Origin: a virus
Taxonomy: Duplodnaviria > Caudoviricetes
Length of the DNA: 64,000 nt
Reading direction: 5' to 3' (one strand)
Virus record (IMG/VR): IMGVR_UViG_3300043406_000028
Span: 12,042 to 76,041 of that record
The notes beneath the pieces are model-generated. The model ran no database searches and had not been told where the DNA came from. It worked only from the letters and a program-made list of their open reading frames with translations. Below, in pieces: positions 1-56,176 of the stretch. A program made the translations under genes and the position numbers. Each line of letters begins with the position of its first letter. The stretch's first letter is position 1.

Positions 1-1
1 A

Positions 2-157
2 TTAGATGCGACGGCGCTCACGTTCGAGCATGAGTTCCCACATTGCTTCGCCATCAGGCTCTGCCTGATAAGCCGCTAGTATCTCGTCATCGGTCATAGA
101 CTGATACTCGGGACGAACCACAGTGATAGCCTCGTACAGAGCTTGCATGTCGATCAT
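2..157 (-). CDS. small hypothetical protein (51 aa, MIDMQALYEA...)
   Basis: Hand-translated ORF below the track cutoff, co-oriented with 224..613. Confidence 0.55.
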   Translation of the reverse strand: MIDMQALYEAITVVRPEYQSMTDDEILAAYQAEPDGEAMWELMLERERRRI

Positions 158-184
158 GTGCGCCTCTCAAGTTAAGATGATGAT

Positions 185-210
185 GGGCCAGGAGCTTTCG
201 CTCCCAGCCC
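185..210 (-). other. 11-bp hairpin with GAAA tetraloop between two minus-strand genes
   Basis: Minus strand GGGCTGGGAGC-GAAA-GCTCCTGGCCC (two G-U pairs). There is no U-tract, so a terminator role is uncertain. Confidence 0.5.
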
Positions 211-223
211 GGTTTAGTGTAGC

Positions 224-613
224 TTATGCAATGGCTTGGACAACAGGTTGTCCAGTGATTAGTGAGATCGGCATATCAGGAGCAACTTGACCCGAATGGA
301 ACAGAGTTCCAACACCCTTAACGAAGATACCATGCTGGCCCTTAACGACACGTTGGCCCTTCAGCAACCAGCCCTTATAGGTAAGGGCATCAACCCTCGG
401 AACCACAATGAATCCGGCCTTCTTGAAGGCTTTGGCGACTTTCACATCGTTGGTGATCTGACGGTCACTGAGGCCGTCTTGATGCTTGGGAGTGAACTTG
501 TTTGCAGGCTTGTAGGACGACTGCGGCTTGTGCTTGGCCTTACCCTTCGGGGCATTTAATGCGGCAATGACTGCGGCAGTAATCATGGCGATTTGGGCTT
601 GATTGACGGTCAT
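224..613 (-). CDS. hypothetical basic protein
   Basis: 129-aa ORF with GGAG SD upstream of the ATG. Confidence 0.75.
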   Translation of the reverse strand: MTVNQAQIAMITAAVIAALNAPKGKAKHKPQSSYKPANKFTPKHQDGLSDRQITNDVKVAKAFKKAGFIVVPRVDALTYKGWLLKGQRVVKGQHGIFVKGVGTLFHSGQVAPDMPISLITGQPVVQAIA

Positions 614-637
614 TGGTCGCTCCGTTCGGTTGCCGAG

Positions 638-966
638 CTTGTCTCTCTGAGTAAGCTCTCAAAGCGAAGCTAAGCGGAACGAAGTGAAGCGAAGAGCTTA
701 CGAAGAGAGCAAGTAAGGTGAGTGGCAGATTAGATGTGTGTGTGTTATCAATAGCTTGGCCCTTAGATGCCACAGTCTTTAGACTGTGAATCCTTCTGAC
801 CTACCCTGCCAAGCCTCGCATCTTCATCATTGATGATAGACTAGATGCGCGACCATTGACTCAGCGATGACCGCTGATGCGTTCTAGCCTCTTAGGCTAG
901 GGTAGCATGGACTGCTATGGTCTAGCTCACCAGTGCTTGTCCTAAGAGGACAATTCCCCAAGGGGA
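638..966. repeat. palindrome/inverted-repeat cluster in the divergent intergenic region
   Basis: GTAAGCTCT 651-659 / AGAGCTTAC 693-701; CACAGTCT-TT-AGACTGTG 771-788; CTAGCCT-CTT-AGGCTAG 884-900; TTGTCCT-AAG-AGGACAA 937-953; TCCCC-AA-GGGGA near 955-966. Confidence 0.8.
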
Positions 967-1054
967 GCCGTACTAGGGGGTAGGGGGCGCGTATTGAGGG
1001 CGGGCGTGTGTGCTTTTTTATCTGCGTCCACAGACATTACAAACAAAAAATCCA

Positions 1055-1106
1055 TTGACTTGTAGTATCTACATTGTAGTATCTACAGATAGATGTAGGA
1101 GCTACA
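1055..1106 (+). promoter_or_regulatory. sigma70-like promoter overlapped by three TGTAG-N3-CTACA operators
   Basis: TTGACT at 1055-1060 and TAGTAT at 1077-1082 (16-bp spacer). Palindromes at 1061-1073, 1075-1087 and 1094-1106; the last covers the AGGAG SD. Confidence 0.7.
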
Positions 1107-1400
1107 ATGAATCTCTGTGAGAAGTGTGGGAAGAACATGGATATTCATGGAAGAGTACATCACTGTGTACCTCAGACCAGAACTCACGATAAGGACATCC
1201 AGGGGGTCATTGAAATAGACCACAGCTATAAGCATCTGGTCTCACCTACTGAGGTCCCACCTACCCCCAAGCAAAAATTACTAGAAAAAAAGAAGGAGGT
1301 AATGGCTCGGTTGGGACATCACGATTGTCCAGTATGTGAGGCGAGGCGCAAGCTCAAGGCTCTCCAGATGAGACGCTACCGGGAGAAGAAGAATGCTTAG
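1107..1400 (+). CDS. small Cys/His-containing protein with basic C-terminus
   Basis: CxxC...HxC and HxCxxC motifs, RRYREKK tail, AGGAG SD. Confidence 0.7.
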   Translation: MNLCEKCGKNMDIHGRVHHCVPQTRTHDKDIQGVIEIDHSYKHLVSPTEVPPTPKQKLLEKKKEVMARLGHHDCPVCEARRKLKALQMRRYREKKNA

Positions 1401-1668
1401 GATTCCTAGAGACCTGTTGGATGCCGCTATCCAGGCCGTCCAGAAATGTTGCGCTAATGCAACAGATGTAAGTGGCCATCGTGTAGTGTTTACCGTGACG
1501 GATAAAGGGATTGAACACATGATCTGCGGCGGCCTTTCCATTGTGGCTCCTAATGGAGGGCCGGTAACTCCAGAGGATATTTTCTATGTGGTCGGCTTCG
1601 GAGGTAAAGATTTTCAGTCATTCCCTAAAAATAGGGTCCCATCCCACGGAGATAAGACGGGACCCTGA
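1393..1668 (+). CDS. hypothetical protein
   Basis: 91-aa ORF overlapping the previous stop. Confidence 0.65.
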   Translation: MLRIPRDLLDAAIQAVQKCCANATDVSGHRVVFTVTDKGIEHMICGGLSIVAPNGGPVTPEDIFYVVGFGGKDFQSFPKNRVPSHGDKTGP

Positions 1669-1728
1669 GTTTGTGTTTCGGGAGGAAACAGAGGGATTAT
1701 GTTTGATTTTTTGTGAAAGATCAACAGT

Positions 1729-1893
1729 CTAGCGTGGTGTTATCCTTCTCATTTCCGGAACTTCCTTGTCCCGCTCGGCCTTCCAGCACTTCTGGCATAG
1801 TTCGTGATCGGCCTTGCCTTGCTTGACGCCCTTAAAGCCCTTGCACTTGAACACCACGATCTTGCGTCCGCATTCACAGTACCTGCGGGCCAT
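1729..1893 (-). CDS. small Zn-finger-like protein (MARRYCECGRK...LCQKCW)
   Basis: Hand-translated 54 aa with GGAGG SD, CxC and CxxC motifs. Confidence 0.6.
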   Translation of the reverse strand: MARRYCECGRKIVVFKCKGFKGVKQGKADHELCQKCWKAERDKEVPEMRRITPR

Positions 1894-1902
1894 CTGCCCC
1901 TC

Positions 1903-2346
1903 CTATGAACAGCCTATTCCCTTAGTTCCTTTCTTACCGTCAGTGAAGACCTTCCAGTGCCTCCAGCCCTTTGGGCAATGGAACCCCCACTCCCTAACTA
2001 TAGGGCCTGTGATGAATAGGCTCCAGCACGGCTGATCAATCTCAATCCTATGAGCCGTCTTGGCCCTGCGGAACTTAAGATTCCCTGCCTTGTACCGGAT
2101 AGCCGTGGTTACCCCACCAGCCAGGATCGAGTACTCGATGTACTCTCCGTCCAGAAGATACGAAACATTCAGCCATGGATGGTCGTGGAGGGCCTCGTCA
2201 TCGTCCGAGCGCAGGAATCGATGGAGATAGATATTGAAGAGCGGGTTGCGTGGAATAACCCACCACCGTTGCATGTATGGGTTTTCTCTCCCGCCGACCA
2301 CAAAATCAGGTTCTCTGCTTTGGGAGATCTTCTCAAACCATCTCAT
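1903..2346 (-). CDS. cupin-like phage protein
   Basis: LHRF...LHDHPW...E...HRI metal-binding cupin pattern; ATGA overlap with the upstream gene. Confidence 0.65.
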   Translation of the reverse strand: MRWFEKISQSREPDFVVGGRENPYMQRWWVIPRNPLFNIYLHRFLRSDDDEALHDHPWLNVSYLLDGEYIEYSILAGGVTTAIRYKAGNLKFRRAKTAHRIEIDQPCWSLFITGPIVREWGFHCPKGWRHWKVFTDGKKGTKGIGCS

Positions 2347-3341
2347 CGCAGCGGGTCCCCCCTTCGATAATCCTGCCCAGCTTTTCTGCCAATCAAATTA
2401 GGCAAAAGCTTGCAGGGCAGGCCATAGCCTGGACGGATCGAGCCTATGTTCTTCTCGGAAAAGTTCTCGCCCTTTTTGATATCCGCTATGGCGTAGAGGC
2501 TACGCCTGATCTGCTTGGTCGGATTGCCATCCTGCTTGGTATGCTGCATCGCAGCGTAGGTCTTCTTCACGTCCACCACCATCTCGGCAAATTCCTCGAC
2601 GCTCATACTGAAGGCATCATCCTCGGACTTGACCCCAGGAAGGTGGCCGAAATGCTTCTCGATAATACAGGCTCCTAACGCCGTAGCAGCAATAGGAGCC
2701 AGACTTCCCTCAGAATGATCCGAAAGCCCCGCCACATTCGAGGGTAGCAGGTCCATAAGGTGGACGATTCCGCCAAGGTTCGACGTTTCAATAGTCCCTG
2801 GATATTCCGACATACAGTGTAGGAATGCGGCCTTTGGTGCCACGGCATGAGCATCGAGAATCTCCTGGTCGTTGGCCATTCCAGTCGAGATGATCATCGG
2901 CTTGCCGGTCGATGCCGCATACTCGATCAGCGGGATATCCACGATTTCCATGGATGCGATCTTGTAGGCCGGACAATCCAGCTTCTCCAGGAAGTCCACG
3001 GCAGTCTTGTCGAAGACGGAACTGAACACCGTGATCTTTTCGTCCCTGGCGACCTTGTACAAATCCGGATGCCAACTGAACGGCGTGTGCGCGGTCTTGT
3101 ACAGTTCCCACAAGGTGCGCCCCTTCCACAACCCGTCCTGGACGATGAAATCAGGCTTGTTCATCTCCATCGTGATCGTATGTGCTTCATAGCACTGGGT
3201 CTTAACCGCCGAGGCATTGGCTGCCTTGGCAAGCTTGATCAGCTTTTTGGCATTCTCCAGCTTGCCGCCGTGATTGCATGAAATTTCGGCTATGCAATAC
3301 GGAGAATTCTTCGGCCCGATCTTGATCCCCTCGATCTGCAC
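2343..3341 (-). CDS. pseI: NeuB/PseI-family nonulosonic acid synthase with C-terminal SAF domain
   Basis: IAEISCNHGG, KIASME, IISTGMA, LHCMSEYP, GLSDHS, IIEKHF, RRSLYA...IRPGYGL motifs. Confidence 0.92.
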   Translation of the reverse strand: MQIEGIKIGPKNSPYCIAEISCNHGGKLENAKKLIKLAKAANASAVKTQCYEAHTITMEMNKPDFIVQDGLWKGRTLWELYKTAHTPFSWHPDLYKVARDEKITVFSSVFDKTAVDFLEKLDCPAYKIASMEIVDIPLIEYAASTGKPMIISTGMANDQEILDAHAVAPKAAFLHCMSEYPGTIETSNLGGIVHLMDLLPSNVAGLSDHSEGSLAPIAATALGACIIEKHFGHLPGVKSEDDAFSMSVEEFAEMVVDVKKTYAAMQHTKQDGNPTKQIRRSLYAIADIKKGENFSEKNIGSIRPGYGLPCKLLPNLIGRKAGQDYRRGDPLR

Positions 3342-3599
3342 TCAATCCTCCTTCAGGGCTTTGTCGATTAAAGATTCCCACACCTTAGCAAGCTCTACGG
3401 CTGCCAGTGGTTCGTAGCCCAGCATCTCTGGTGTGGGCTCCCGCATTGCCTTGATGCAGGCCCGCGCGATCATCTTGACCCGACCTTGATCAAGGAAGTC
3501 CAATTCGTCATAGGCGGGAGCCCCCGCTGGCTGGTTCTCGCTCCAGATCGCCTTGGCGACCTTTTCTACCATCGTTGGGTCAACTGTGATTTCTGTCAT
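3342..3599 (-). CDS. small phage hypothetical protein inside the sugar operon
   Basis: VEKVAKAIW...ARACIKAMREPTPEM pattern typical of small phage proteins; coupled to both neighbours. Confidence 0.7.
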   Translation of the reverse strand: MTEITVDPTMVEKVAKAIWSENQPAGAPAYDELDFLDQGRVKMIARACIKAMREPTPEMLGYEPLAAVELAKVWESLIDKALKED

Positions 3600-4711
3600 T
3601 GCAAACTGTCTCCTACGACTTGAAAAATCTTTCGCATCACCCTTCGCTGCCTGCTTGTCGGCGAATAAGAACAGACATCGAAGGTCATCAGTTCCTTGTC
3701 CTCAAGATTCTCCGCTATCGGATGAACATCCGGGACATCGAAGACCCTATGCAACGGAGGTGAATACCCCTCACGCATCGGAATTCCGAGGTTAACCAGT
3801 CTGGATACAAAGGTATCCCGTGGCCATACCCCAACCTTGGCAGCCCAGATGTAATAGACATGCTTGCAGTCGTGTCTTTCCACAGGAGGCTTAATCTGTG
3901 GGAAGTCCTTGACCATATCGGTCATCTCAAGCGCCAGTTCGCGCCTGCCCTCCACAATCCATGGCCCCTTGCTCAATTGGGCGACGGCCAGGGCAGCAAT
4001 CGGCTCTGTCATGCGGAGGTTAAGCCCCATGATTCCGGGCCTCAGTTCCCCGTGGTTTACGGCATCCTTGATCTTGAGGGCGAGGTCAGAGTCGTTGGTA
4101 ACGACGACGCCTCCCTCGCCTGTCTGGATATGCTTATGAATATTAAGACTGAATACGCCAATGTCGCCGATAGTACCGCTATAAGCATCACGGGCCTTGG
4201 CGAAAGGCGCTTGGGCATTGTCCTCGATCATCCATACTTTGTTGATCCGGCACCACGAACGAATCTCCTGGAGGTATGCAGGATGCCCGAACAGGTTAGT
4301 GACGATGACAGCCTTCGGCTTCTTACCTCCTGGGAGGTTGAGCATGTTGATCGAAAAGGTTTTTGGCTCAACATCTATGAAACGTACCTCTGCGCCAAGC
4401 ACCTTTGCACATGCCGCCGTCGCGCTCATGGTGTAGGTTGGAGCCCACACAAGATCTCCAGGTCCGATTCCGACCGCAAGGCAGGCAGCCAGCAATCCTG
4501 ATGTACCCGAGTTGCAGGGAACGGCATGCTGACAACGGAAGGTTGACTTCCATTCATCAGATAGGCGCTCGACCCAATAACCACCGCGATGGTCACCGCC
4601 GAGGTAAGCACTAAAAGGGCGAGCGAGGGTAGAGAGTACATATCGGCGTTCCAAGTAATTCCTGGTTTCGAACGGAGGTAGAACTCCAAGCTTACGTCTC
4701 AATTGGTGCAT
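3596..4711 (-). CDS. DegT/DnrJ/EryC1/StrS PLP sugar aminotransferase (PseC-like)
   Basis: CNSGTSGL, IEDNAQA, VFSLNIHKHIQTGEGG, GLNLRMTE motifs. Confidence 0.92.
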   Translation of the reverse strand: MHQLRRKLGVLPPFETRNYLERRYVLSTLARPFSAYLGGDHRGGYWVERLSDEWKSTFRCQHAVPCNSGTSGLLAACLAVGIGPGDLVWAPTYTMSATAACAKVLGAEVRFIDVEPKTFSINMLNLPGGKKPKAVIVTNLFGHPAYLQEIRSWCRINKVWMIEDNAQAPFAKARDAYSGTIGDIGVFSLNIHKHIQTGEGGVVVTNDSDLALKIKDAVNHGELRPGIMGLNLRMTEPIAALAVAQLSKGPWIVEGRRELALEMTDMVKDFPQIKPPVERHDCKHVYYIWAAKVGVWPRDTFVSRLVNLGIPMREGYSPPLHRVFDVPDVHPIAENLEDKELMTFDVCSYSPTSRQRRVMRKIFQVVGDSLQ

Positions 4712-5571
4712 TTATAGTTCTCGCACATGGCCTTGATATCGCTCTCCAGGCTGGGGAGCCCTAGGCCGAATGCATGGTCGGCCCTGGTGATATCCATTCT
4801 GGTATCAAGGGGACGAATCACTCTCTGGGCTTGATCCGCCGCCGCGACAGGGCGAATCCCTTGGGCGCTCAGACCCATTCCATCTGCCAGCAGCATGGCA
4901 AACTTGGCCTTCGACATGGCGGTGGACGCACCGAGATTGAAGGTTCCGACCTTGTTGGTCTTAGCCATCTTCACCAGACAATCGGCTAAGGTCTTGGTCC
5001 ATAGCGGATTGAAGAACGAATCGGTGAAGGCGTTGAAGATATCTCCGCTCTTCATCTTGGTTAGAAAAAAATCAACTAGACTACTCTTCCTCGCAGACAA
5101 AGCCTTGCCATAGAGATTGGTCCTGACAATCAGATGATTCGTGGCCTTGGCTGCCGCAAACTCACCCATGAACTTGCTCATCCCATACATATTGATGGGA
5201 TTCTCACTTCGAGAATGCTCCTTGTGAGGCCCGTATCCGGAATAGACCATATCGGTCGATATGTAGATAAAACGGCATTCCTTCGACATATGAGTGACAA
5301 GATTCTCTGTCATCCCCGCATTGGCAATCACAGCCTTGTGCGGATGGAGTCCGCATTCATCCACGTTGGTCATGGCTGCTGCGTGGACGATGATTCCAGG
5401 TGTGTAGTTTTCTATGACGAATTTGGCGTTTCGCTCATCCGTCAGGTCGCAGACCTTAGTGGATATCCCATGCACTTCTCCAAGCTTGGAGAATGCCGTC
5501 ATCAGGTATGGACCCAGGAGACCTGTGGCCCCGGTAATAAGGATACGCATTACTTCAACCGCCTCATCCAC
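4699..5571 (-). CDS. RmlD-like NAD(P)-dependent SDR reductase
   Basis: ILITGATGLLG, HAAAMTNVD, YISTDMVY, YGMSK (YxxxK). Confidence 0.88.
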   Translation of the reverse strand: MDEAVEVMRILITGATGLLGPYLMTAFSKLGEVHGISTKVCDLTDERNAKFVIENYTPGIIVHAAAMTNVDECGLHPHKAVIANAGMTENLVTHMSKECRFIYISTDMVYSGYGPHKEHSRSENPINMYGMSKFMGEFAAAKATNHLIVRTNLYGKALSARKSSLVDFFLTKMKSGDIFNAFTDSFFNPLWTKTLADCLVKMAKTNKVGTFNLGASTAMSKAKFAMLLADGMGLSAQGIRPVAAADQAQRVIRPLDTRMDITRADHAFGLGLPSLESDIKAMCENYKCTN

Positions 5572-5789
5572 TTGGTTACGTTGCGATCATTCTCTGTGAT
5601 GGCAGCCATGATCTTCTTGGCTTGCCTAGGCCGCGCCTTGAATGCCAAGGCCAATAACTGCATCCAGCAGTTGTTATTTTTGCGGCGGATTCTTGTTACT
5701 TCTTTGACGACCAACCCATTGGTGATCTTGCGGTGAACGTACTTACGCTTCTTCATACGAGATCCTTTAATTGTTCGACGGTGAGCCAC
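5550..5789 (-). CDS. small basic hypothetical protein (probable start MKKRKY near 5756)
   Basis: K/R-rich ORF bridging pseB and the RmlD-like gene. Confidence 0.6.
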   Translation of the reverse strand: MAHRRTIKGSRMKKRKYVHRKITNGLVVKEVTRIRRKNNNCWMQLLALAFKARPRQAKKIMAAITENDRNVTKWMRRLK

Positions 5790-6724
5790 TGGGAGTTGGA
5801 GTCGCTGGAGTACCTCCAGCCGGACATGACCAGTGTTTCGTATTGTCTCTTGATGTATCCGGATGGATTGATGCAGTAATAGGTCTCGCCCTTGAGGCCG
5901 ATTCCCATCGTTGTTGTCACACTCTCATCTTCGGTGATCAGAGTTTCGTGGAGCTTCTCTCCGGGGCGGATTCCTGTGTTGAATTCCACAGTTCCTCCAT
6001 CATTGCCATGAACAGCATGAGCAAGATCAATGATTCTGATCGATGGGATCTTCGGGACCAGAATCTTCGAATGAAACCCCTCATCGGATATCTCCAGCGC
6101 GTTCATGACCAGATCGATGCTCTGATCCAGAGTGATCCAGAATCGCGTCATCCTTTCGTCTGTTACTTTGAGCGTCTTGCCTTCCGCCTTGAGTTTCTGG
6201 AAGAGCGGAAGAACAGAGCCGCGAGAACCAGAGACATTACCGTAGCGAACGACATTGAACCGGCATTTCCCCGCAGCCATTGCGTTAGCTGCAATAAAAA
6301 TCTTCTCCGCCGCGAGTTTCGATGCGCCGTATAGATTGATCGGATTAACCGCCTTATCTGTCGATAGTGCAACGACTCGTGAAACTGAAGTGCGTAACGC
6401 CGCTCGGATAACATTTTCGGCACCCGTGACATTTGTTGCTATGCACTCCGTTGGATTGTATTCTGCCGTTGGAACGATCTTCAGAGCCGCCGCATGGATA
6501 ACAGTGTCCACGCCACGCATGGCCATCTCAAGCCGACCCAGATCACGCACATCTCCGATGAAGAAGCGTAGTCGATCATCATTGAACTTTCGCTCCATCT
6601 CTTCTTGAAGATGCTCGCCACGGGAATAGATGGCGATACGCTCAATCTTATGGTTATTGAGGATGTGCCGGGTAAAGGCTTGGCCGAAGGAGCCAGAGCC
6701 GCCTGTGACGAGAATGGATTTCAT
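5753..6724 (-). CDS. pseB: UDP-N-acetylglucosamine 4,6-dehydratase (inverting), PseB
   Basis: LVTGGSGSFG, HAAALKIVP, ALSTDKAVNPINLYGASK, RYGNVSGSRGSV, GIRPGEKLHE. Confidence 0.93.
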   Translation of the reverse strand: MKSILVTGGSGSFGQAFTRHILNNHKIERIAIYSRGEHLQEEMERKFNDDRLRFFIGDVRDLGRLEMAMRGVDTVIHAAALKIVPTAEYNPTECIATNVTGAENVIRAALRTSVSRVVALSTDKAVNPINLYGASKLAAEKIFIAANAMAAGKCRFNVVRYGNVSGSRGSVLPLFQKLKAEGKTLKVTDERMTRFWITLDQSIDLVMNALEISDEGFHSKILVPKIPSIRIIDLAHAVHGNDGGTVEFNTGIRPGEKLHETLITEDESVTTTMGIGLKGETYYCINPSGYIKRQYETLVMSGWRYSSDSNSQWLTVEQLKDLV

Positions 6725-8727
6725 GCTGACTTTCGCAGTGCCTGACCCTGGATATGTCCCTTGAGATATTGCTTAATCTGCCCATGCGCGGACGCCTCGT
6801 CGATCAGATCGAGGGTATGTTTGTAAGCCTTCAGGATTCGCTGAATCTCTGGTTCTTTCATGGCATAGGATACGCAGTTGGCATTGAGGCACAGGACCCC
6901 TTGTTGGGCCATTTCCTGGATGAACAGTGCCTGAATATCCGAATCCTTGAATTTGATCTTCACAAGCGGCGAGATTCCGCTGAAGTCCATCGACTTTCCA
7001 GAGCGATGCGATATGGCCGACCTGATCTTGATCCCAGTATCGTGCAGATGACGGATGACACCCTCCCGCTCCATCTTCTTGATGGTTGCCAGGGCCGCAG
7101 CGATGGACAGCGTGTCGCCGAAGAACGTGCCGGAGAAGAACACGCCACTCTTGCCGTCCATCATCTTCATGATGTCGCGCTTGCCGACCAGGGCAGAGAT
7201 TGGCATTCCATTGCCCATCGACTTGCCGAAGCAGGCCAGATCAGGTGTGACACCAAAATACTCTTGCCCTCCGCCGAGCGCATAGCGGAAGCCGGTCTGA
7301 ATCTCGTCAAAGATCAGAATTACCCCGTTCTGGGAACACCAGAGTCTTAAAGCCCTGAGGTATTCAGGATCATGCGTCGGCTCTACGATGACCGCAGCAA
7401 TCCCGCCATTCAGAAACTGCCGACAGGATTCAATATCCTTCATATCTCCGTAACTGATGACCTGTGACACTCGCTTCACGCCATCAGGGATTCCAGCGTT
7501 TTTCCCTTCCAGCCAAGCGGCTGACCAATCCGCCCATCCGTGGTATCCTCCGACCAATACATGGTCCTGACCCGTGTAAGCCCTGGCAAGCCGAACTGCG
7601 GCGCTTGTCACATCGGTTCCTGACTTGCCGAATTGGACCATTTCCGCGCACGGGATTAGTTCACAGAGCTTCTCGGCCAGTTGACACTCAAGCTTGGTAG
7701 CCAAGCTGAAGCTCATTCCGGAATTTAACTGTCTCCGGACAGCCTCATCTACGTCAGGATCGCGGTATCCTAGGACGACAGGCAGGAGTGCGCTAACCAG
7801 ATCAACGTAATCGTTGCCATCGACATCAAATATCCGAGCGCCATCCCCATGAGAAACATAAAGCGGAGCGCCTCCCGCTGGGTACCATAGGTGCGATTTA
7901 GAAAATGTCTGTGACCCAAGTGGTATTGACTTGGTTGATCGCGCCAGTAGGGCGTCTGATCTGGTATATGTTCGTGGGGGTAATCGCTCTTCTGCGATTC
8001 CTTCGTAAAACCGTTCATTTCGAATGGCTCCGGCATTGATCCCCCTCAGGGCTGGATTCAGATCAAGGATTCGCATGATCTCGGTAGACGAAGGCGGCTT
8101 GCCCATAGGGACGCGCCGCGCAATCTCCTTGCACAATTCGTAGTCCTTCTGCGTATCCAGCACCCAGCGCTCCTTATGAGCCCCAGGAAACGGGCAAATC
8201 AGGTACTCGGCAGGGAAGCGATCCTGGTTACGGATGATCCATTGTGTCACACAGTCCCGATCAGAGGGTCTGGTGGCCTCTTTCCACGCCGCTTCGAGTG
8301 CTTCGAAGGTGAAGCACTCAACATCCAGGCCGTCAGGCCACGTTGGCTGGTTGGAGCAATAGGAGGAATTGGTCATCTCCATAAGCTGGATGACCTGCCC
8401 CACCACATTCGGATCAATAAACGGACAATCGCAGGTGATACGCAGGATCACATCGGCATTACGCTTGATGGCGCACTGATAGAACCGATCCAGCACATCG
8501 GATTCCGAGCCACGCGATACATCGACATTGTTCTCTACGCACCACTTAGCGATTACGTCATCCGCAGTCAGCGTAGAGGTGGCAATGCAGACCTGATCGA
8601 CGCCTGGAGACTCACGCAAAGCTCGAACCACCCACCCAAGGACCGGCATCTTCTCCAGCGGAGCCATAACCTTGCCAGGAAATCTCGTGCTGCCCATGCG
8701 GGCCTGGGCAATAGCTAAAGTTTTCAT
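6721..8727 (-). CDS. SpsF/PseF-like cytidylyltransferase fused to a class III (GSA-like) aminotransferase
   Basis: N-terminus QARMGSTRFPGKV...RITCDCPFID; C-terminus DEIQTGFR...DLACFGKSMGNG (PLP lysine). Confidence 0.9.
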   Translation of the reverse strand: MKTLAIAQARMGSTRFPGKVMAPLEKMPVLGWVVRALRESPGVDQVCIATSTLTADDVIAKWCVENNVDVSRGSESDVLDRFYQCAIKRNADVILRITCDCPFIDPNVVGQVIQLMEMTNSSYCSNQPTWPDGLDVECFTFEALEAAWKEATRPSDRDCVTQWIIRNQDRFPAEYLICPFPGAHKERWVLDTQKDYELCKEIARRVPMGKPPSSTEIMRILDLNPALRGINAGAIRNERFYEGIAEERLPPRTYTRSDALLARSTKSIPLGSQTFSKSHLWYPAGGAPLYVSHGDGARIFDVDGNDYVDLVSALLPVVLGYRDPDVDEAVRRQLNSGMSFSLATKLECQLAEKLCELIPCAEMVQFGKSGTDVTSAAVRLARAYTGQDHVLVGGYHGWADWSAAWLEGKNAGIPDGVKRVSQVISYGDMKDIESCRQFLNGGIAAVIVEPTHDPEYLRALRLWCSQNGVILIFDEIQTGFRYALGGGQEYFGVTPDLACFGKSMGNGMPISALVGKRDIMKMMDGKSGVFFSGTFFGDTLSIAAALATIKKMEREGVIRHLHDTGIKIRSAISHRSGKSMDFSGISPLVKIKFKDSDIQALFIQEMAQQGVLCLNANCVSYAMKEPEIQRILKAYKHTLDLIDEASAHGQIKQYLKGHIQGQALRKSA

Positions 8728-9620
8728 GTGAGTCCGGCCTGTTTACGAACCTCAAGACAGATTTTGAGAACCTCAAGACCTTCTTCGCCGCTGCATCCGA
8801 TTGTTTCCTTCCCATCGATTCTGCTGATGAACGCTTCCATCTCTTCGATGTAGTCCTCGTCGTAGGAACCGCTGAGGCGCTCCCAGCATCTTATGTCCCC
8901 AGCATTCTCATTTGGGACTAGGGCGATGTGTCTATCAGGTAGACTGCAATGGATGGATGCTTTCGACCCATGGATCGTGAATCTGCGCTGCTCTGGCTTG
9001 GTGATGTAATCCAGATGAACCGTAGACCGGCACCCACTCTCATGCGTGAGAAGGATATTGGTCATATCGTCTTTGCCATCAGTCAATCTTGTGGAAGAAC
9101 CCGCAACTTTCGCAGAGCCCAACAAATAAAGGGCAAGATCAATCTCGTGGCTCCAATTCAATATGCAACCGTCACGTAGATACGGAGGTTTTTCGCTATA
9201 CTGTCCGAGGGTAAAATTGGCCCAGATTGGCTTGCCGATGAGCCCGGCGTCCAGCCACTCCTTGGCTTTCTTGACGCAGCTATGGAATCGGAGGTTGTAG
9301 CCGACTGTCAGCGCATTCTTCGGATATGGCAATCCGCTATGGATCATCTTATCCGCTATCGGCTTTTCCACTAAGCATGGCTTTCCAGCCACCCATACTC
9401 GCCCAAGATGCTCGAAGTGATTTGGTGTTGGGCTAGCGATAACAATCGCCTCTGCATCCATAACATCGTCAATATTTTCTACGATGCGGCCTAGCGGTGC
9501 TGCTAACCATCGTCGCTCGTTGTCTGGATCATAGCCAATAATTTGATGTCCCATGGTGTGCAGATTCTTGGCATGCCTCATGCCGATACTGCCAAGTCCA
9601 ATGATTCCGATTGTTTTCAT
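8724..9620 (-). CDS. Gfo/Idh/MocA oxidoreductase
   Basis: IGIIGLGSIG, EKP motif, GYNLRFH. Confidence 0.9.
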   Translation of the reverse strand: MKTIGIIGLGSIGMRHAKNLHTMGHQIIGYDPDNERRWLAAPLGRIVENIDDVMDAEAIVIASPTPNHFEHLGRVWVAGKPCLVEKPIADKMIHSGLPYPKNALTVGYNLRFHSCVKKAKEWLDAGLIGKPIWANFTLGQYSEKPPYLRDGCILNWSHEIDLALYLLGSAKVAGSSTRLTDGKDDMTNILLTHESGCRSTVHLDYITKPEQRRFTIHGSKASIHCSLPDRHIALVPNENAGDIRCWERLSGSYDEDYIEEMEAFISRIDGKETIGCSGEEGLEVLKICLEVRKQAGLT

Positions 9621-10213
9621 TTTGCTGGGAATGCGTTCTTGGTGTCTTTTTGCAGGATAGTAACGCTGGTCTCACCCTGAACCGTTCTTCCGCATAGAGA
9701 GTATGTGGGATGAGCAAGCCATAGCTTCGAGAAGTCAAAATGATGGGAGAACAGACCAGCCTTGTGCTTGTAGGGGACCTTGAAGGTGTGGTCTGGATAG
9801 AAGTCATAGACAACGAGATGACCTCCATCTCTCAGGATTCTGTCGCCCTCTAGTGCGATTTTGAAGTAATCATCTGGGTCGCAGAGATACAGGCACCAGC
9901 CGTAAATCAGCATATCGAACTGTTCGTCGGAATACTGGAGACGATCAGCAGTTCCGGCCCAGACCTGAACCCTGGATGATCCACGCTTGCTGCCGTAGGC
10001 GGGGTCATAGCCCTCGACATGGCATCCCCACATACGCTGCATAACCTCAAGCCGGGCACCATCGGCACAGCCGACTTCCAGAACACGATCTGGAATGAGC
10101 TTATACTTGTCGATAGCTTCTAGGACTGGATCGCTGTTCTCGTCATAGCGGCCAGCATTCCGAGCCATCCAGGCTTCGCCTTCTCCGTGAAGAAAGGTCA
10201 GAGATTGTTTCAT
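9617..10213 (-). CDS. class I SAM-dependent methyltransferase
   Basis: VLEVGCADG motif I; resembles methylases found in pseudaminate clusters. Confidence 0.85.
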   Translation of the reverse strand: MKQSLTFLHGEGEAWMARNAGRYDENSDPVLEAIDKYKLIPDRVLEVGCADGARLEVMQRMWGCHVEGYDPAYGSKRGSSRVQVWAGTADRLQYSDEQFDMLIYGWCLYLCDPDDYFKIALEGDRILRDGGHLVVYDFYPDHTFKVPYKHKAGLFSHHFDFSKLWLAHPTYSLCGRTVQGETSVTILQKDTKNAFPAK

Positions 10214-10722
10214 CGCTGACCAAGGCTCCCATACAGGTGCATGCTGACTGGCTTCCCTTTCACCAGGAAATGATCCTGGACAATGGCCTCATGTCTCATC
10301 CCGTATTTGGTGCAGATTCTGATCATCGGGGCATTCAGGGACATGCAGCCAGCTTCGATCTTTCTGATCGACTTTTCGATGAACAGATAATTACAGACGC
10401 ACTCCCAAGCCTCAAAGCCGTAGCCTTTGCCCCATTGGGTCTTATCCCCAATCATGATTCCGACATTGGCGACATTGTTGGGCTGGTCTATGCGGACGGC
10501 TACAGACCCGATTGGCACTGTCGGTGAATAGATGCTGTAGACGAAGTTTGGTGCAGCGGTGGCTGCTGAGAGCCAGTAATCTCCCTGTGATTCCTCAGTG
10601 TGAGTTTTATGACGTTGCTCAGAATATTTAACGACTTCCGGATCATTCAGCCAACAAGCAAATAGACCAGCTTCATCCATATCTGGCGGCTCCATCAGAA
10701 GCCTTGGAGTTGCAAGAATCAC
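10210..10722 (-). CDS. GNAT/RimJ-type N-acetyltransferase (PseH-like)
   Basis: WLNDPEV...VGIMIGDKTQWGKGYG...N.PMI...KYG; GTG start. Confidence 0.85.
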   Translation of the reverse strand: MILATPRLLMEPPDMDEAGLFACWLNDPEVVKYSEQRHKTHTEESQGDYWLSAATAAPNFVYSIYSPTVPIGSVAVRIDQPNNVANVGIMIGDKTQWGKGYGFEAWECVCNYLFIEKSIRKIEAGCMSLNAPMIRICTKYGMRHEAIVQDHFLVKGKPVSMHLYGSLGQR

Positions 10723-10886
10723 TTCTTCCTCGGCATCTGATCTTTGAGGTGCTGGATAATGGCCAGCATCGTTTCTGACAGCATCAGAACTCCAGCCGCC
10801 TCGACTGAATAGCCGCCCAGCTTTCGCCGCTTGACCACTTCCTCCATCACCCGAGCCTCAAGCTCGATCATGTCGTCTCTGTGCAT
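10719..10886 (-). CDS. small hypothetical protein leading the sugar operon (MHRDDMIELE..., 55 aa)
   Basis: Hand-translated; AGGAG SD upstream; stop overlaps the GNAT GTG. Confidence 0.65.
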   Translation of the reverse strand: MHRDDMIELEARVMEEVVKRRKLGGYSVEAAGVLMLSETMLAIIQHLKDQMPRKK

Positions 10887-10982
10887 GTATTTCTCCTGTT
10901 GGTTTTAGGTAGCCCAAATTGGGCTTCGTTGCCCAGTTCGTATGTAGGAACTATAGTTTGATATCCACAGGCATCTAAATTC

Positions 10983-12647
10983 ATGAATTTCGCCAACAAG
11001 ATCGCCAAGGCTGGCATGCAGATCGCCAAGCTGAAGGAGCGCGAAATCTATGAAGGAGCCCTGATTGACTTTGCAGAATACGTCTGGCCCGTGGTTGAGC
11101 CCGCTATTCCATTCGTCAGAGGTTGGGCCATCGAAGCAATTGCCGAGCATCTTCAGGCAGTTACGGACGGTCAGATCAAGCGCCTTCTGATGAACGTCCC
11201 GCCCGGATTCACCAAATCCCTGATGACCGATGTGTTCTGGCCAGCCTACGAATGGGGTCCCAGGAACATGCCCTGGCTGCGGTATGTCTGCGCCTCCTAC
11301 TCCAACCACCTGACCGAGCGCGACAACATGCGCTGCCGCAACATCGTGATCTCGGATCGCTATCAAAAGATGTGGGGCTCCCGGTTCAAGATCTCGAACG
11401 AGCAGTTCACCAAGATCAAGTTCGCCAACGACCATACTGGGTGGAAATTGGCTACCTCCGTGGGAGGCATCGGCGTCGGAGAGCGCGGTGACAGGTTCAT
11501 TATCGACGACCCCAACAACACCATGGACATGGAGTCCGAGCAGGTCCGGGATACTACGAATCTGTGGTTTACCGAGGTCGTGCCCGACCGTCTTAACAAC
11601 CCACAGGATAGTGCTATCGTTATTATCCAGCAGAGGTTGCATGAAGACGATGTGAGCGGAGTCGCTCTCTCCAGAGAGATGGGATACACGCACTTGATGA
11701 TCCCGATGGAGCATGATGTTTCAAGGCATTGTGTGACCGTTTTGGGGCTAGACAGTGACGGAAATAAGAAAGTATGGGAAGACCCCAGGAAAGAGGATGG
11801 GGAACTGGCGTGGCCTAATCGGTTCACCCAGAAGGTCTGCGATGACCTGAAGCGGGATAAAGGCCCTCATGCATGGGCTGGGCAATACATGCAGAGCCCG
11901 GAGCCAAGGGGCGGTTCCATCATCAAGCGCGATTTCTGGCAGCTATGGGAGCAGCCTAAGTTCCCTCAGTTCGAGTATATCCTGGCTTCGGTCGATACCG
12001 CCTACACCGATAAAGAGGAAAACGATCCTAGTGCTTTGACAATCTGGGGTGTTTTCCGGGACGAATCCTCCCTTAGAACGACTGATTCCGACATCCTTTG
12101 GATGCCTCGCGATGGGCAGGCGCTACAATCCATCAAGGGAAATCCCAAGATTATGCTGATGTACGCTTGGCAGGAGCGGCTCCAATTCCACGAACTGCTT
12201 GAGAAGATTATGGATACCTGCGGGGCGGGGTCAAAAACCAAGCTGGGGGCCAAATTCCCAGTGGATCGGGTGCTTATCGAAGCCAAGGCTAGCGGCCAGT
12301 CGGTAGGCCAGGAAATGCACCGCATGCTACGCGGGACCGGGAAATTCGGGGTGGAGCTAAACCCGGTCGAAGGGGACAAGTACGCCCGGCTCCAATCCGT
12401 CCAGCACCTGTTCTCCGAGGGCATGATCTATGCTCCCGACAGGGCCTTTGCAGATATGGTGATCGACCAGTGCGCCGTGTTCCCCAAGGGCTCCCGAGAC
12501 GACTTGGTGGATACCACCTCGCAGGCACTGCGATACTTGAGAGATCAGGGCTTTGCGTTGAGGCGCGAAGAATACATCGTAGAAGAACGGGAAGAGATGA
12601 TGTATAAGGGCGCATCCTACAATGCGCCGCTTTACGGTAACTTCTGA
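10983..12647 (+). CDS. terL: terminase large subunit
   Basis: Walker A variant NVPPGFTKS, Walker B FIIDDP, nuclease SVDTAY, IEAKASG, DDLVD. Confidence 0.95.
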   Translation: MNFANKIAKAGMQIAKLKEREIYEGALIDFAEYVWPVVEPAIPFVRGWAIEAIAEHLQAVTDGQIKRLLMNVPPGFTKSLMTDVFWPAYEWGPRNMPWLRYVCASYSNHLTERDNMRCRNIVISDRYQKMWGSRFKISNEQFTKIKFANDHTGWKLATSVGGIGVGERGDRFIIDDPNNTMDMESEQVRDTTNLWFTEVVPDRLNNPQDSAIVIIQQRLHEDDVSGVALSREMGYTHLMIPMEHDVSRHCVTVLGLDSDGNKKVWEDPRKEDGELAWPNRFTQKVCDDLKRDKGPHAWAGQYMQSPEPRGGSIIKRDFWQLWEQPKFPQFEYILASVDTAYTDKEENDPSALTIWGVFRDESSLRTTDSDILWMPRDGQALQSIKGNPKIMLMYAWQERLQFHELLEKIMDTCGAGSKTKLGAKFPVDRVLIEAKASGQSVGQEMHRMLRGTGKFGVELNPVEGDKYARLQSVQHLFSEGMIYAPDRAFADMVIDQCAVFPKGSRDDLVDTTSQALRYLRDQGFALRREEYIVEEREEMMYKGASYNAPLYGNF

Positions 12648-15151
12648 TGGCCCCACGCTCTAAAGCTAAGAGGTTAGACAACCCTTATCCTGAGGTTGTG
12701 CCGCCTGCTTTGACTTTGGTGAAGAGCGATAGCGACGAGATGGGGGCTGATTCCGTCTCATTCGAGGATGGGACTCTAAGGGTCGAGCATCCGGACGGAT
12801 CGGTGACAATCGATTTGTCTCCGCCGGGAGACCAAGACGATCCCCCTGATGGCGATGAATTTGATCGTAACCTTGCTCTCAGCATGTCCGACGATGATCT
12901 TGGATCGATTTCAACGGACCTGATCGAAGGAATCGACCGGGATAACGAGTCCCGCAAGAAGTGGCTGGATACCAGAGCCCTTGGCATCGGTCTTCTTGGC
13001 CTTGAGCTTGAGAAGCCGAGGGCCGGGGCCGGGACAGAATCCGCACCCATCGAGGGCATGTCTACCGTTCGCCACCCGCTTCTATTGGAAGCCACTGTTT
13101 CCTTCCAGGCGACGGCTCGGGCCGAGCTTCTGCCTGCGTCCGGGCCGGTCAAGGTTCGCAACGATACGCCGACCCCGCCAAAAGAGATTGTCCAGGAAAC
13201 CTCTGCCCAGCCTCAATTGCTGGAGAGCATGCAATCCAACGATGAGCTTTCCCAGGCCCTGGAGAAGGACCTCAACCACTATCTGACAGCCGTTGCGACC
13301 GAATATGTTCCAGATACGGATCGTATGCTGTTCTACATTGGCTTCGGCGGAGACGGGTTCAAGAAGGTTTACAACTGCCCACTTCGCCGCAGGCCAGTCT
13401 CGGAATCGATTGATGCCGAGGATTTGATCATCTCGAATACCGCGACCGATCTCTGCAACTCTGGCCGCGTTACACACCGCATCAAGATGCGCCAATCGAC
13501 GCTGAAGCGCATGCAGATTCTGGGTGTCTACCGCGATGTGGAATTAAGCCCGCCGACCATCAGCAATCCAACCGCAGTTGACAAGAAACTTGAGGCTATC
13601 TCCGGTGTTACGGAAAGCAACAAGCTTCCTGAGGATCGTGATTTCGAAGTCTATGAGACCTACTGCGAACTCGATATCGACAAGTACGCCCCTGACCAAT
13701 TCAAGGGTAAGGGATTACCGCTGCCTTATCGCGTGACCATCGAGAAGGAATCAAAGAAGATTCTCGATATCCGCCGGAATTGGAAAGAAGAAGATGAGCA
13801 ATGTCTTGCCAAGCAATTCTTCGTCCAGTTTCCGTTTATCAGAGGTTTGGGCTTCTACGGGCTTGGATTCATACATCTGCTCGGCAATACAACCAACGCC
13901 CTTACCGCCGGATGGCGTGAAGCCCTGGATGCCGGGATGTTCGCCAACTTCCCTGGATTTATCTACGCTAAGGGCGCTGGGCGTCAGCTAACCAACCAAA
14001 TCCGTATTCCGCCTGGAGGCGGCTATGGCCTTGATATCGGCGCTGGACAGCGAATCCAGGACGCCATCATGGGAGTTCCATACAAGGAAGCTGGCGCTGG
14101 TTTCATCAACCTCCTTGGTAAGATTGAAGAGGGTGGGCGTCGCCTTGCGTCCACCGCAGAAGTCAGTGTCGGAGAGGGTAAGCAAGATGCTCCTGTGGGA
14201 ACCACCCTCGCCCTTATTGAGCAGGCATCGAAGGTCATGGATTCGGCGCATAAGCGCCTGCATGCCGCCCAGGCTGAGGAATTCAAGTTATTGAAGTGTC
14301 GTTTCCAGGAAGACCCTGAGTCCTTCTGGCGTCATAACAAGAAGCCTACCATTAAGTGGAAGAAGGACCAGTTCCTCGCGGCTTTGGACAACTGCGAGCT
14401 TGTCCCGGTAGCAGACCCTAACAACCCGACCAGCCTGCATCGCTTGGCGAAGGGTGCGATCATCAAGCAGCTTCAGACAGCAAACCCGGCTCTCTACGAT
14501 GCAGTAGCTGTCGATATGCGGGTGATGAGAATCTCCGATATCGACCCTGCTGGCCTGATGCGTCCGACGCCCGCCCCTGCTCCGCCTGATCCACGCATGG
14601 TTGCGATCCAGAAGAAGGCCGAAGCTCAAGAATTGATGAGCAAGATCCAGCTTATGGAAACCCAGATCAGGGCAGCAACTGCCGGTGCTCAGATCCAGGA
14701 CAAGGCCAAGGATCGTGAATCTCGTGAACGCATCGAGCAGATGAAGATCAGGCTTCAGCAGCTTGATCTTGAACAGTCTCAGATTCAGCACAAGGCCGAT
14801 GAAGAAAAGATCTATGCTCGCATGATGCACGAGCTAAACACCAAAGCACAGTTGGCGGCCCACGGTGCCCAGGTCGAGGCTGTCGAGGCTCAGCACGGCC
14901 TGCACCTGGATGCCGCTGAGACGGCCCATGGACTTCAGGTCGATAAGGCCAAGACCGATCACGAACTCCGCACCAATGCGGAGCGCACCGAGCATGAGAA
15001 GGAAATGGCAAGAGAGCGCCATAACGCCGAAATGACTCGCGCCCACGAGAAGCACCAACTAGACATGCAGCATGCTAAAGAACTTCATGCTCATAAGCTT
15101 GAGGCAGCCAAACAGATGGCTCGCGCCAAGCCTAAGAAAGCAAAGGAATAA
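12647..15151 (+). CDS. portal protein with long coiled-coil, His-rich C-terminal extension
   Basis: Follows terL; HPLLLEA...FQA, GFYGLG, GTTLALIEQ and HKRLH portal motifs. Confidence 0.9.
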   Translation: MAPRSKAKRLDNPYPEVVPPALTLVKSDSDEMGADSVSFEDGTLRVEHPDGSVTIDLSPPGDQDDPPDGDEFDRNLALSMSDDDLGSISTDLIEGIDRDNESRKKWLDTRALGIGLLGLELEKPRAGAGTESAPIEGMSTVRHPLLLEATVSFQATARAELLPASGPVKVRNDTPTPPKEIVQETSAQPQLLESMQSNDELSQALEKDLNHYLTAVATEYVPDTDRMLFYIGFGGDGFKKVYNCPLRRRPVSESIDAEDLIISNTATDLCNSGRVTHRIKMRQSTLKRMQILGVYRDVELSPPTISNPTAVDKKLEAISGVTESNKLPEDRDFEVYETYCELDIDKYAPDQFKGKGLPLPYRVTIEKESKKILDIRRNWKEEDEQCLAKQFFVQFPFIRGLGFYGLGFIHLLGNTTNALTAGWREALDAGMFANFPGFIYAKGAGRQLTNQIRIPPGGGYGLDIGAGQRIQDAIMGVPYKEAGAGFINLLGKIEEGGRRLASTAEVSVGEGKQDAPVGTTLALIEQASKVMDSAHKRLHAAQAEEFKLLKCRFQEDPESFWRHNKKPTIKWKKDQFLAALDNCELVPVADPNNPTSLHRLAKGAIIKQLQTANPALYDAVAVDMRVMRISDIDPAGLMRPTPAPAPPDPRMVAIQKKAEAQELMSKIQLMETQIRAATAGAQIQDKAKDRESRERIEQMKIRLQQLDLEQSQIQHKADEEKIYARMMHELNTKAQLAAHGAQVEAVEAQHGLHLDAAETAHGLQVDKAKTDHELRTNAERTEHEKEMARERHNAEMTRAHEKHQLDMQHAKELHAHKLEAAKQMARAKPKKAKE

Positions 15152-55538: not shown

Positions 55539-55612
55539 TGGTACCGCCTTCAGGGATTGAACCTGATTTTCCGGGGCCACAACCCAGCGTTCTGCCATTG
55601 AACTAAGGCGGC
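55539..55612 (-). tRNA. tRNA-His(GUG), no G-1, A73
   Basis: Loop TTGTGGC; full cloverleaf; CCA end. Confidence 0.9.
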
Positions 55613-55616
55613 GTAT

Positions 55617-55687
55617 TGGTTGGGGACGAGTGGATTCAAACCCTCTTCATCCGGCTCAAAACCGGATTTACCATCTTGGAATCCCCA
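55617..55687 (-). tRNA. tRNA-Gln(UUG), degenerate D-arm
   Basis: ATCCGG-TTTTGAG-CCGGAT; 3' D-strand missing; T-loop TTTGAAT. Confidence 0.6.
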
Positions 55688-55691
55688 GTAT

Positions 55692-55765
55692 TGGTAGAGC
55701 CTGAGGGGGACGATCCCTCGTCTCCTGAGTGAAAATCAGGTATGCTGCCGTTGCACTAAGGCTCC
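55692..55765 (-). tRNA. tRNA-Glu(UUC)
   Basis: CCTGA-TTTTCAC-TCAGG; T-loop ATCGTCC. Confidence 0.85.
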
Positions 55766-55770
55766 GTATT

Positions 55771-55845
55771 TGGTGCGGACTGGGAGAATCGAACTCCCTT
55801 CACTAGGTTGGAAGCCTAGGGCATCAGCCAATATACCAAGCCCGC
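55771..55845 (-). tRNA. tRNA-Gly(UCC)
   Basis: CTAGG-CTTCCAA-CCTAG. Confidence 0.9.
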
Positions 55846-55849
55846 GTAT

Positions 55850-55938
55850 TGGCGGAAAGCTGAGGTCTTGATCCCCACACCCGTTAAGGTGCCATCTCCT
55901 TAGCAGGGAGCGGCAGGCACTTGCCTGCTTAACTTTCC
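55850..55938 (-). tRNA. tRNA-Ser(GCU)
   Basis: Loop CTGCTAA; long variable arm; G73. Confidence 0.85.
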
Positions 55939-56079
55939 GTGTTCTTTGCAAAGTGTTTCAAATTCTTCCATCGACCAGTCTGAAGACGGGGTCTTAAGCT
56001 CCCGAACAGCGCCGTGGTCGAAATCATCCATCGAGATGAATTTTCCACACACATCACAGCGATTCCAATGCTCGTCCAT
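55900..56079 (-). CDS. small Zn-finger ORF (MDEHWNRCDVCGKF...LCKEH), stop inside tRNA-Ser(GCU)
   Basis: Hand-translated 59 aa; GGAG SD. Confidence 0.6.
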   Translation of the reverse strand: MDEHWNRCDVCGKFISMDDFDHGAVRELKTPSSDWSMEEFETLCKEHGKLSRQVPAAPC

Positions 56080-56095
56080 GACAGTCTCCGTTAAT

Positions 56096-56172: not shown

Positions 56173-56176
56173 GTAT

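Follow-up and report, generated by a model that had tools for sequence, protein, structure and literature searches.

A phage operon for a predicted variant of the CMP-pseudaminic acid pathway that lacks a recognisable PseG

Introduction

What sugar is made by a bacteriophage operon that carries recognisable parts of the route to cytidine monophosphate (CMP)-activated pseudaminic acid (Pse), lacks any recognisable copy of the UDP-sugar hydrolase PseG and holds several enzymes that the canonical route does not use? The question is raised by a stretch of 64,000 nucleotides (hereafter the window), bases 12042-76041 of the 76,041-bp IMG/VR virus record IMGVR_UViG_3300043406_000028 (Caudoviricetes), in which 12 co-directional genes without intergenic gaps occupy positions 1903-10886 of the minus strand (coordinates are those of the window unless stated otherwise). 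A preliminary description of the locus noted the lack of PseG, listed a class III aminotransferase, a Gfo/Idh/MocA dehydrogenase, an RmlD-like reductase and an S-adenosylmethionine (SAM)-dependent methyltransferase as additional enzymes, and proposed that pairs of redox and amine steps would give an unusual nonulosonate. The analysis reported here suggests, with a rough probability of 0.55, that the operon encodes a variant CMP-pseudaminic acid pathway making a tailored nine-carbon sugar; judged from its gene content, the product is probably a non-standard, additionally aminated and methylated Pse-type sugar, which is a sound prediction. Most of the additional enzymes belong to a widespread bacterial module that the literature already mentions, and the lack of PseG alone is special to the phage.

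The canonical pathway of Campylobacter jejuni and Helicobacter pylori runs PseB-PseC-PseH-PseG-PseI-PseF and ends in the CMP-activated form of the 5,7-di-N-acetylated sugar Pse5Ac7Ac (316 Da for the ordinary sugar by our own figure). The phage shares its logic of dehydratase, aminotransferase, acetyltransferase, synthase and cytidylyltransferase, and two of its enzymes, the first and the fifth, score above the curated cut-offs. It differs in lacking PseG, in filling the PseC, PseH and PseF roles with non-orthologous members of the respective families, and in adding a dehydrogenase, an aminotransferase and a methyltransferase.

The operon begins with a small open reading frame (ORF), o55, and continues with a GNAT acetyltransferase, the SAM methyltransferase, the Gfo/Idh/MocA dehydrogenase (GFO), a cytidylyltransferase fused to a class III aminotransferase (CT-AT3), PseB, o79, the RmlD-like reductase, a DegT-family aminotransferase, o85, PseI and the cupin o147. 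It is not a chance assembly, because each of its 12 genes, all in one direction, adjoins or overlaps (by 4-37 nt) the next and its core of GNAT, methyltransferase(s), GFO, CT-AT3, PseB, DegT and PseI is kept in 11 related viral contigs; these are matched by the fusion over its full length at 50-71% identity, and the methyltransferase is present in one or two copies in all 11. The additional enzymes of the preliminary description were all recovered, intact, by Pfam and NCBIfam matches and by motif inspection, which found the cofactor and catalytic motifs of every operon enzyme in place. Its range of 3596-10722 does enclose enzymes of the pathway but leaves out PseI, small ORFs and the cupin of the same operon; likewise, its list named the right members but overlooked the fusion of the class III aminotransferase to the sole cytidylyltransferase and the fact that neither DegT nor GNAT is an orthologue of its canonical counterpart, PseC or PseH.

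The Missing PseG Hydrolase

When the entire 76,041-bp genome was searched in six frames with profiles, as the preliminary description had proposed for PseG and NeuC, no match at E ≤ 10 was obtained to PseG (TIGR03590), Epimerase_2/NeuC or Glyco_tran_28_C. PseG was also not found in four complete relatives (73-75 kb) by the family model or by a profile of seven bacterial PseGs, so that the lack reported for the window extends to the entire genome and to these relatives. Other hydrolases that could stand in for PseG were sought among the Nudix, Metallophos, DUF218, AP_endonuc_2 and HAD families and could be ruled out, there being no match at E ≤ 1 anywhere in the phage. In one related contig (L088), a calcineurin-like phosphoesterase is encoded at 2919-3629 between the terminase gene and the operon; it is not conserved.

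The cupin o147, the last gene of the operon, had been put forward as a possible source of the hydrolase. Its predicted structure matches cysteine dioxygenase, TM1459 and cupin-type phosphoglucose isomerase (Foldseek, E ~1e-6), it has invariant HDH...H residues, and 2,733 highly similar homologues, mostly viral, mark it as a generic, mostly phage-borne metal cupin. The cupin cannot be the hydrolase of this phage family because none of the 11 related operons, themselves equally without PseG, contains it, and it was rejected as a PseG replacement. The small protein o79 was likewise dismissed as an enzyme, because it is a basic helical hairpin of 60-79 residues.

As to what performs the PseG step, the best guess is the PseG of the host or another host hydrolase, held at somewhat less than even odds. 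An unrecognised phage protein is a distinctly weaker candidate, some other solution is unlikely, and double duty by a conserved operon enzyme, for example GFO acting by oxidation and elimination, is the least probable of the four.

The Oxidoreductase and Class III Aminotransferase Module in Bacteria

On the evidence of gene order, GFO and CT-AT3 are not a phage invention, since bacterial Pse operons carry a syntenic unit on top of all six canonical enzymes. Six-frame phylum-wide searches recovered full-length homologues of the fusion in 10 of 251 Desulfobacterota genomes (40-44% identity) and in about 5 of 301 Bacteroidota genomes (34-36% identity), and none in 251 Verrucomicrobiota genomes; a contig scan with the fusion returned HemL-like aminotransferases only, without sugar-gene neighbours. 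Five Desulfobacterota loci share the order PseB, PseC, GFO, CT-AT3, PseG fused or adjacent to a GNAT, and PseI. The GFO of these loci, directly upstream of the fusion, is 26-29% identical to the phage enzyme (E 1e-22 to 1e-27), and no cytidylyltransferase other than the fusion was seen within these 20-kb loci. The Bacteroidota order is PseB, PseC, aldo-keto reductase, CT-AT3, a PseG-GNAT fusion and PseI, the aldo-keto reductase occupying the GFO position here and in one Desulfobacterota locus. Upstream of the fusion, GFO is the partner in L123-L127 and the aldo-keto reductase in L104 and L130, with GFO on the other side of the fusion in L129. In the operons of the aldo-keto reductase type, PseC (545 bits), PseG (322 bits) and PseI (498 bits) all score above their cut-offs.

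Of the 14 bacterial genomes with the fusion that were tested, at least 10 have a PseG match that adjoins the fusion or lies within a few kb of it; the remainder comprise two with PseG elsewhere in the genome or on a contig beyond the loci examined, one with a weak PseG-like match and one without a match. GFO and CT-AT3 are an addition to a complete Pse pathway and therefore no replacement for PseG, a role for which bacterial synteny rules the module out, and the extra enzymes do not account for the lack of PseG. What sets the phage apart from the bacterial operons is the loss of PseG, together with that of canonical PseC and PseH. A non-standard nonulosonate nevertheless remains a reasonable prediction, because GFO or an aldo-keto reductase sits with CT-AT3 beside complete PseB, PseC, PseG-PseH and PseI in bacteria. 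The part of the original proposal that survives is accordingly the GFO and class III pair, apparently a true extra step beside a full canonical set, whereas the pair involving the RmlD-like reductase is limited to the two closest relatives.

The resemblance of the phage locus to these bacterial operons (Desulfobacterota and Bacteroidota L123-L130 and L104-L106; Aeromonas by published description) lies in the order oxidoreductase, cytidylyltransferase and class III aminotransferase and in the presence of PseB and PseI. The bacteria keep a canonical PseC and, right after the aminotransferase, a PseG-PseH fusion, whereas the phage is without both and has a divergent DegT, a stand-alone GNAT and one or two extra methyltransferases; no methyltransferase was found beside the module in the bacterial loci examined. 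In a FastTree phylogeny of the class III (AT3) domain, read without inspection of branch supports, the phage sequences form one clade that is sister to the bacterial clades, the type of partner (aldo-keto reductase, GFO or short-chain dehydrogenase/reductase, SDR) tracks the tree, and all stand apart from the HemL-like outgroup.

An unfused unit of oxidoreductase, cytidylyltransferase and class III aminotransferase has been described in the group I flagellin glycosylation islands of Aeromonas, in which two subgroups lack PseG, one of them with a methyltransferase and an HAD hydrolase, no function being assigned (PMC7874193). Studied strains of Aeromonas bear Pse derivatives of 376 and 403 Da (PMC7874193, PMC4691044).

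Beyond the Pse operons, a stand-alone aminotransferase that is 38-44% identical to the AT3 domain occurs in about 45 of 301 Bacteroidota genomes. It lies within a few kb of a cytidylyltransferase in eight of ten fetched loci, seven of which also hold a NeuB-type synthase, and neither PseB nor DegT was found near it in any of the ten. The only annotated locus of this kind also has an SDR, an HAD phosphatase and a split transketolase: this PseB-less cluster (L113 6687-14994, Bacteroidota genome G131) comprises a fatty-acid hydroxylase, a NeuB-like synthase, the HAD phosphatase, the SDR, the class III aminotransferase, the split transketolase, a cytidylyltransferase and a Glyphos_transf-like protein. 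Similar loci are L108, L110, L111 and L114-L116, and clusters of this type probably make another aminated ulosonic acid.

The Enzymes of the Phage Operon

The features of the operon are collected in Table 1. Among its enzymes, PseB and PseI alone pass the NCBI equivalog cut-offs and, by these models, are bona fide; the phage PseB is 52% identical to the PseB of Desulfobacterota Pse operons, and a YxxxK motif is found both in it and in the RmlD-like protein.

Table 1. Genes of the phage sugar operon in the order of the operon
Feature	Position	Strand	Supporting observations
o55, first operon ORF, 55 aa	10719..10886	-	4-nt overlap with GNAT start; no Pfam family
GNAT N-acetyltransferase (Acetyltransf_3, RimL-like)	10210..10722	-	PF13302 E 2e-20
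Class I SAM-dependent methyltransferase	9617..10213	-	PF08241 (Methyltransf_11) E 1e-7; motif I LEVGCADG
GFO, Gfo/Idh/MocA NAD(P) dehydrogenase	8724..9620	-	PF22725, PF02894, PF01408; GxGxxG and EKP motifs
CT-AT3, 668 aa: SpsF/KdsB-type cytidylyltransferase (residues 1-245) and class III glutamate-1-semialdehyde (GSA)-aminomutase-like aminotransferase (250-668)	6721..8727	-	PF02348 E 2e-25, PF00202 E 3e-50
PseB, inverting UDP-GlcNAc 4,6-dehydratase	5753..6724	-	TIGR03589 421.1 bits, above cut-off of 407.75
o79, small basic two-helix protein	5550..5789	-	no Pfam family; helical-hairpin model with predicted local distance difference test (pLDDT) 79
RmlD-like SDR 4-ketoreductase	4699..5571	-	PF04321 E 1e-48; TIGR01214 154 bits, below cut-off of 224
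DegT-family sugar aminotransferase	3596..4711	-	PF01041 E 1e-50
o85, small ORF	3342..3599	-	no Pfam family
PseI, pseudaminic acid synthase (NeuB and SAF domains)	2343..3341	-	TIGR03586 376.2 bits, above cut-off of 340.25
o147, metal-binding cupin, last operon gene	1903..2346	-	AlphaFold pLDDT 79; Foldseek E ~1e-6

The DegT protein falls well below the PseC equivalog TIGR03588 (151 bits against a cut-off of 423.5), to which the PseC of the syntenic bacterial operons scores 545 bits. It shares 27-29% identity with bacterial PseC but, along its entire length, 31-36% with a second DegT of Bacteroidota Pse loci, and among its PDB matches perosamine synthetase and KdnA (5k8b) rank above PseC. The GNAT protein similarly falls short of the PseH equivalog TIGR03585 (21.8 bits against 93.1). 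It has a QWGKGYG motif, shares the Acetyltransf_3 Pfam family with the GNAT half of bacterial PseG-PseH fusions, with which it shares 25% identity (E 1e-6), and reaches 36-38% identity with a second GNAT of the Bacteroidota Pse loci. Both of these closest bacterial relatives found for the phage DegT and GNAT belong to a second module of cytidylyltransferase, Gfo/Idh/MocA protein, DegT and GNAT that lies downstream of PseI in two Bacteroidota loci (L104 10071-14522, genome G124; L105 2452-7310, genome G228).

DegT is presumed to be a non-orthologous analogue of PseC, and the GNAT is the probable stand-in for PseH. The two are read as replacements of PseC and PseH because PseB still requires a C4 aminotransferase and because the phage GFO is far closer to the GFO adjacent to the bacterial fusion than to that of the second Bacteroidota module. 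One related contig (L084, 19-591) has a formyltransferase in the position of the GNAT, an arrangement that fits an N-acylation slot. The stereochemistry of the product at C7 may differ from that of the canonical sugar.

GFO overlaps the fusion by 4 nt, and its closest structures are inositol 2-dehydrogenases and PDB 7bvj, which we take to be a UDP-GlcNAc 3-dehydrogenase. The fusion holds the sole CTP_transf_3 domain of the phage genome; its N-terminal 250 residues match KdsB-type models only, all below cut-off, with no match to the PseF model (TIGR03584) at E ≤ 1e-3, and the nearest structure to the domain is 6oew, an unnamed cytidylyltransferase. In the class III domain, the pyridoxal phosphate (PLP) lysine is present within FGKSMGNGMP, and a score of 246-248 bits against a cut-off of 527 for the hemL equivalog TIGR00713 predicts that the domain is not a true HemL. 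The natural substrate of the GSA-aminomutase family derives from Glu-tRNA.

The closest structures to the RmlD-like protein are dTDP-4-dehydrorhamnose reductases. Its gene is found in only two of the 11 related contigs, the two closest (L082 and L083), and the reductase is placed outside the core chemistry of the phage family because it is limited to this phage and these two relatives. The distribution of the RmlD-like gene and of the cupin marks both as lineage-specific extras, seemingly later additions of a sub-lineage.

The three small ORFs are unequally conserved. Homologues of o55 stand at the equivalent position in three to four relatives, and those of o79 (59-79 aa), with invariant R, NN, W, L, P and D, in six to eight related operons. 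Homologues of o85 are found only in L082 and L083, apart from a weak link to two ORFs of L089 that lie outside the operon of that contig.

Proposed Pathway, Precedents, and Rival Explanations

In the pathway proposed for the operon, PseB, DegT, and the GNAT would yield UDP-2,4-diacylamido-2,4,6-trideoxy-L-altrose or a stereoisomer of it. UDP would then be removed by an enzyme that the phage does not recognisably encode, most likely host PseG, and PseI would join the free sugar to phosphoenolpyruvate. Of the two secondary hydroxyls still free, GFO would convert one into a ketone by oxidation, with C8 favoured over C4 because of the analogy with EpaA/EpaB and because an 8-amino nonulosonate exists in nature. 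The class III domain would transaminate the ketone, the methyltransferase would methylate the product, on the new amine or elsewhere, and the fused cytidylyltransferase domain would form the CMP-sugar. Given that a 9-deoxy sugar has only its C4 and C8 hydroxyls free, we infer as the favoured course that C8 is oxidised and transaminated, after which the product is methylated and then activated with CMP. A second 6-deoxy sugar may also arise from the 4-keto intermediate, drawn off by the RmlD-like reductase and the cupin. The module itself is most likely an add-on tailoring step that turns a hydroxyl of the nine-carbon acid into an amine; that its constant partners are the synthase of that acid, an oxidoreductase and the activating enzyme points to the ulosonic acid as its substrate rather than a UDP-hexose.

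A working analogy is provided by the Kdo8N pathway of Shewanella (KdnB, KdnA, KdsB), in which 3-deoxy-D-manno-octulosonic acid (Kdo) is oxidised and transaminated before CMP activation, that is, a hydroxyl of a free ulosonic acid is converted and the product is activated by a KdsB-type enzyme. The analogy is imperfect, as KdnB is an iron-type alcohol dehydrogenase and not a Gfo/Idh/MocA protein, KdnA (5k8b, matched by the phage DegT in the structure search) is of the DegT type and not of class III, and the reaction there takes place at a primary alcohol, a group missing from a 9-deoxy sugar. Further precedents are EpaA, a fusion of cytidylyltransferase and aldo-keto reductase, and EpaB, an SDR, of Acinetobacter prophages, which convert Pse into its 8-epimer, 8ePse (PMC12053666). 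Like the present system, the Acinetobacter baumannii pair is phage-borne and joins a CTP_transf_3 domain to a tailoring enzyme, with a separate dehydrogenase, for a Pse-type sugar (PMC12053666); the aldo-keto reductase domain of EpaA leads to the 8-epimer, whereas the phage fusion has a class III aminotransferase, and the Acinetobacter prophages depend on their host for Pse itself. An 8-amino-3,5,7,8,9-pentadeoxy-nonulosonate occurs naturally in Tenacibaculum (Flexibacter) maritimum (PMC3210612).

Several points weigh against this pathway. It is odd that a phage should carry five of the six steps and yet omit one. DegT is nearer to the second, uncharacterised Bacteroidota DegT than to PseC, and its role as C4 aminotransferase is assumed from gene adjacency alone. 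The module of GFO or aldo-keto reductase with class III aminotransferase may act on another carbon than C8, or even on an N-acyl side chain rather than on the ring. Aldo-keto reductases, moreover, normally reduce, and deamination followed by reduction fits equally well as oxidation followed by amination.

An unlikely alternative is that the GFO and class III pair adds no amine to the backbone and remodels an N-acyl substituent (for example aminoacyl to hydroxyacyl, by transamination with subsequent reduction) or epimerises through a keto intermediate, giving a Pse derivative of unusual side chain or stereochemistry that has only two nitrogens. Derivatives of Pse and of legionaminic acid (Leg) often bear glyceroyl, hydroxybutanoyl or N-methyl-glutamyl groups. 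The typically reductive aldo-keto reductase is the partner in many bacterial operons (PMC7874193), and EpaA/EpaB provide a cytidylyltransferase-reductase fusion and a dehydrogenase that together epimerise C8 of Pse (PMC12053666). Against this, the partner in the phage and in Desulfobacterota is a Gfo/Idh/MocA protein whose nearest structures oxidise the ring hydroxyls of inositol, and no ligase or acyl carrier that could supply an aminoacyl side chain is encoded in the operon. Even less probable is that the product is ordinary Pse5Ac7Ac (7-formyl in some relatives) and that the extra genes are dispensable or have another role, such as a second sugar made by PseB and the RmlD-like protein. PseB and PseI are indeed canonical, and PseB with the RmlD-like protein resembles the WbvB/WbvR-type route to 6-deoxy-L-hexosamines; this reading is nonetheless hard to square with GFO, CT-AT3 and methyltransferase genes that are conserved, intact and translationally coupled in a phage clade diverged to ~50% protein identity, or with a fusion that holds the only cytidylyltransferase and so ties the aminotransferase domain physically to the activation step.

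It is also doubtful, to a similar degree, that the phage pathway needs no PseG because a conserved operon protein releases UDP or the hydrolase is bypassed, for example through GFO acting by NAD-dependent C3 oxidation and elimination in the manner of GH4/GH109. Glycosidases of the Gfo/Idh/MocA fold that use a transient oxidation are known. Neither PseG nor any of the other hydrolase families searched for was found in the phage, PseG being absent from the four complete relatives as well, and Aeromonas islands that lack PseG and keep the class III aminotransferase have been reported (PMC7874193). On the other hand, the coexistence of GFO and CT-AT3 homologues with an adjacent PseG in bacteria argues that they are not PseG substitutes there, and nothing in the sequence of the phage GFO marks it as a hydrolase. 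A bolder combination, in which a CMP-activated, N-methylated triamino nonulosonate (5,7,8- or 4,5,7-triamino) is made without a PseG-type hydrolase, UDP being released by a conserved operon enzyme or an unrecognised phage protein, is given little credence; if true, it would define the function of the oxidoreductase/class III aminotransferase module and a new way of freeing the hexose for the synthase.

Genome Context

The 76,041-bp record has direct terminal repeats of 127 bp, and the phage carries large terminase, portal and tail genes. The operon diverges from the large terminase gene at 10983. The small terminase subunit is encoded at genome positions 10127-10723 (record coordinates, ahead of the window), ~12 kb from the large terminase gene and beyond the sugar operon, and is preceded by an endonuclease VII gene at genome positions 9655-10107. 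An array of 22 canonical tRNA genes, including two for tRNA-Glu and four for tRNA-Arg, lies on the minus strand at 55539-59151, whereas ARAGORN gave no tRNA within genome positions 1-14500. The gene at 24948-25907 matches no Pfam family at E ≤ 0.1.

The fusion was not found in any isolated phage of INPHARED. The nearest isolated phages by large terminase are those of Paracoccus and Roseobacter (alphaproteobacterial) and of Aeromonas, at 35-37% identity, and an uncultured spring-water phage reaches 47%; as a guide to the host, these terminase matches appear uninformative.

Conclusions

A unit of oxidoreductase and class III aminotransferase beside a cytidylyltransferase recurs, without an assigned reaction, in the Pse operons of several phyla and in this phage clade, and its near homologues number well over a hundred in public protein data. 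The module probably underlies some of the unexplained masses of Pse derivatives on flagellins, and the phage version offers a compact, self-contained and intact gene set that could be expressed to define its reaction. The conserved absence of PseG poses the question of whether these phages depend on a Pse-making host or encode an unrecognised hydrolase. If the phage does produce an activated sialic-acid-like sugar of its own, probably destined for its particle, it would represent an unusual instance of glycosylation of a virion or host surface.

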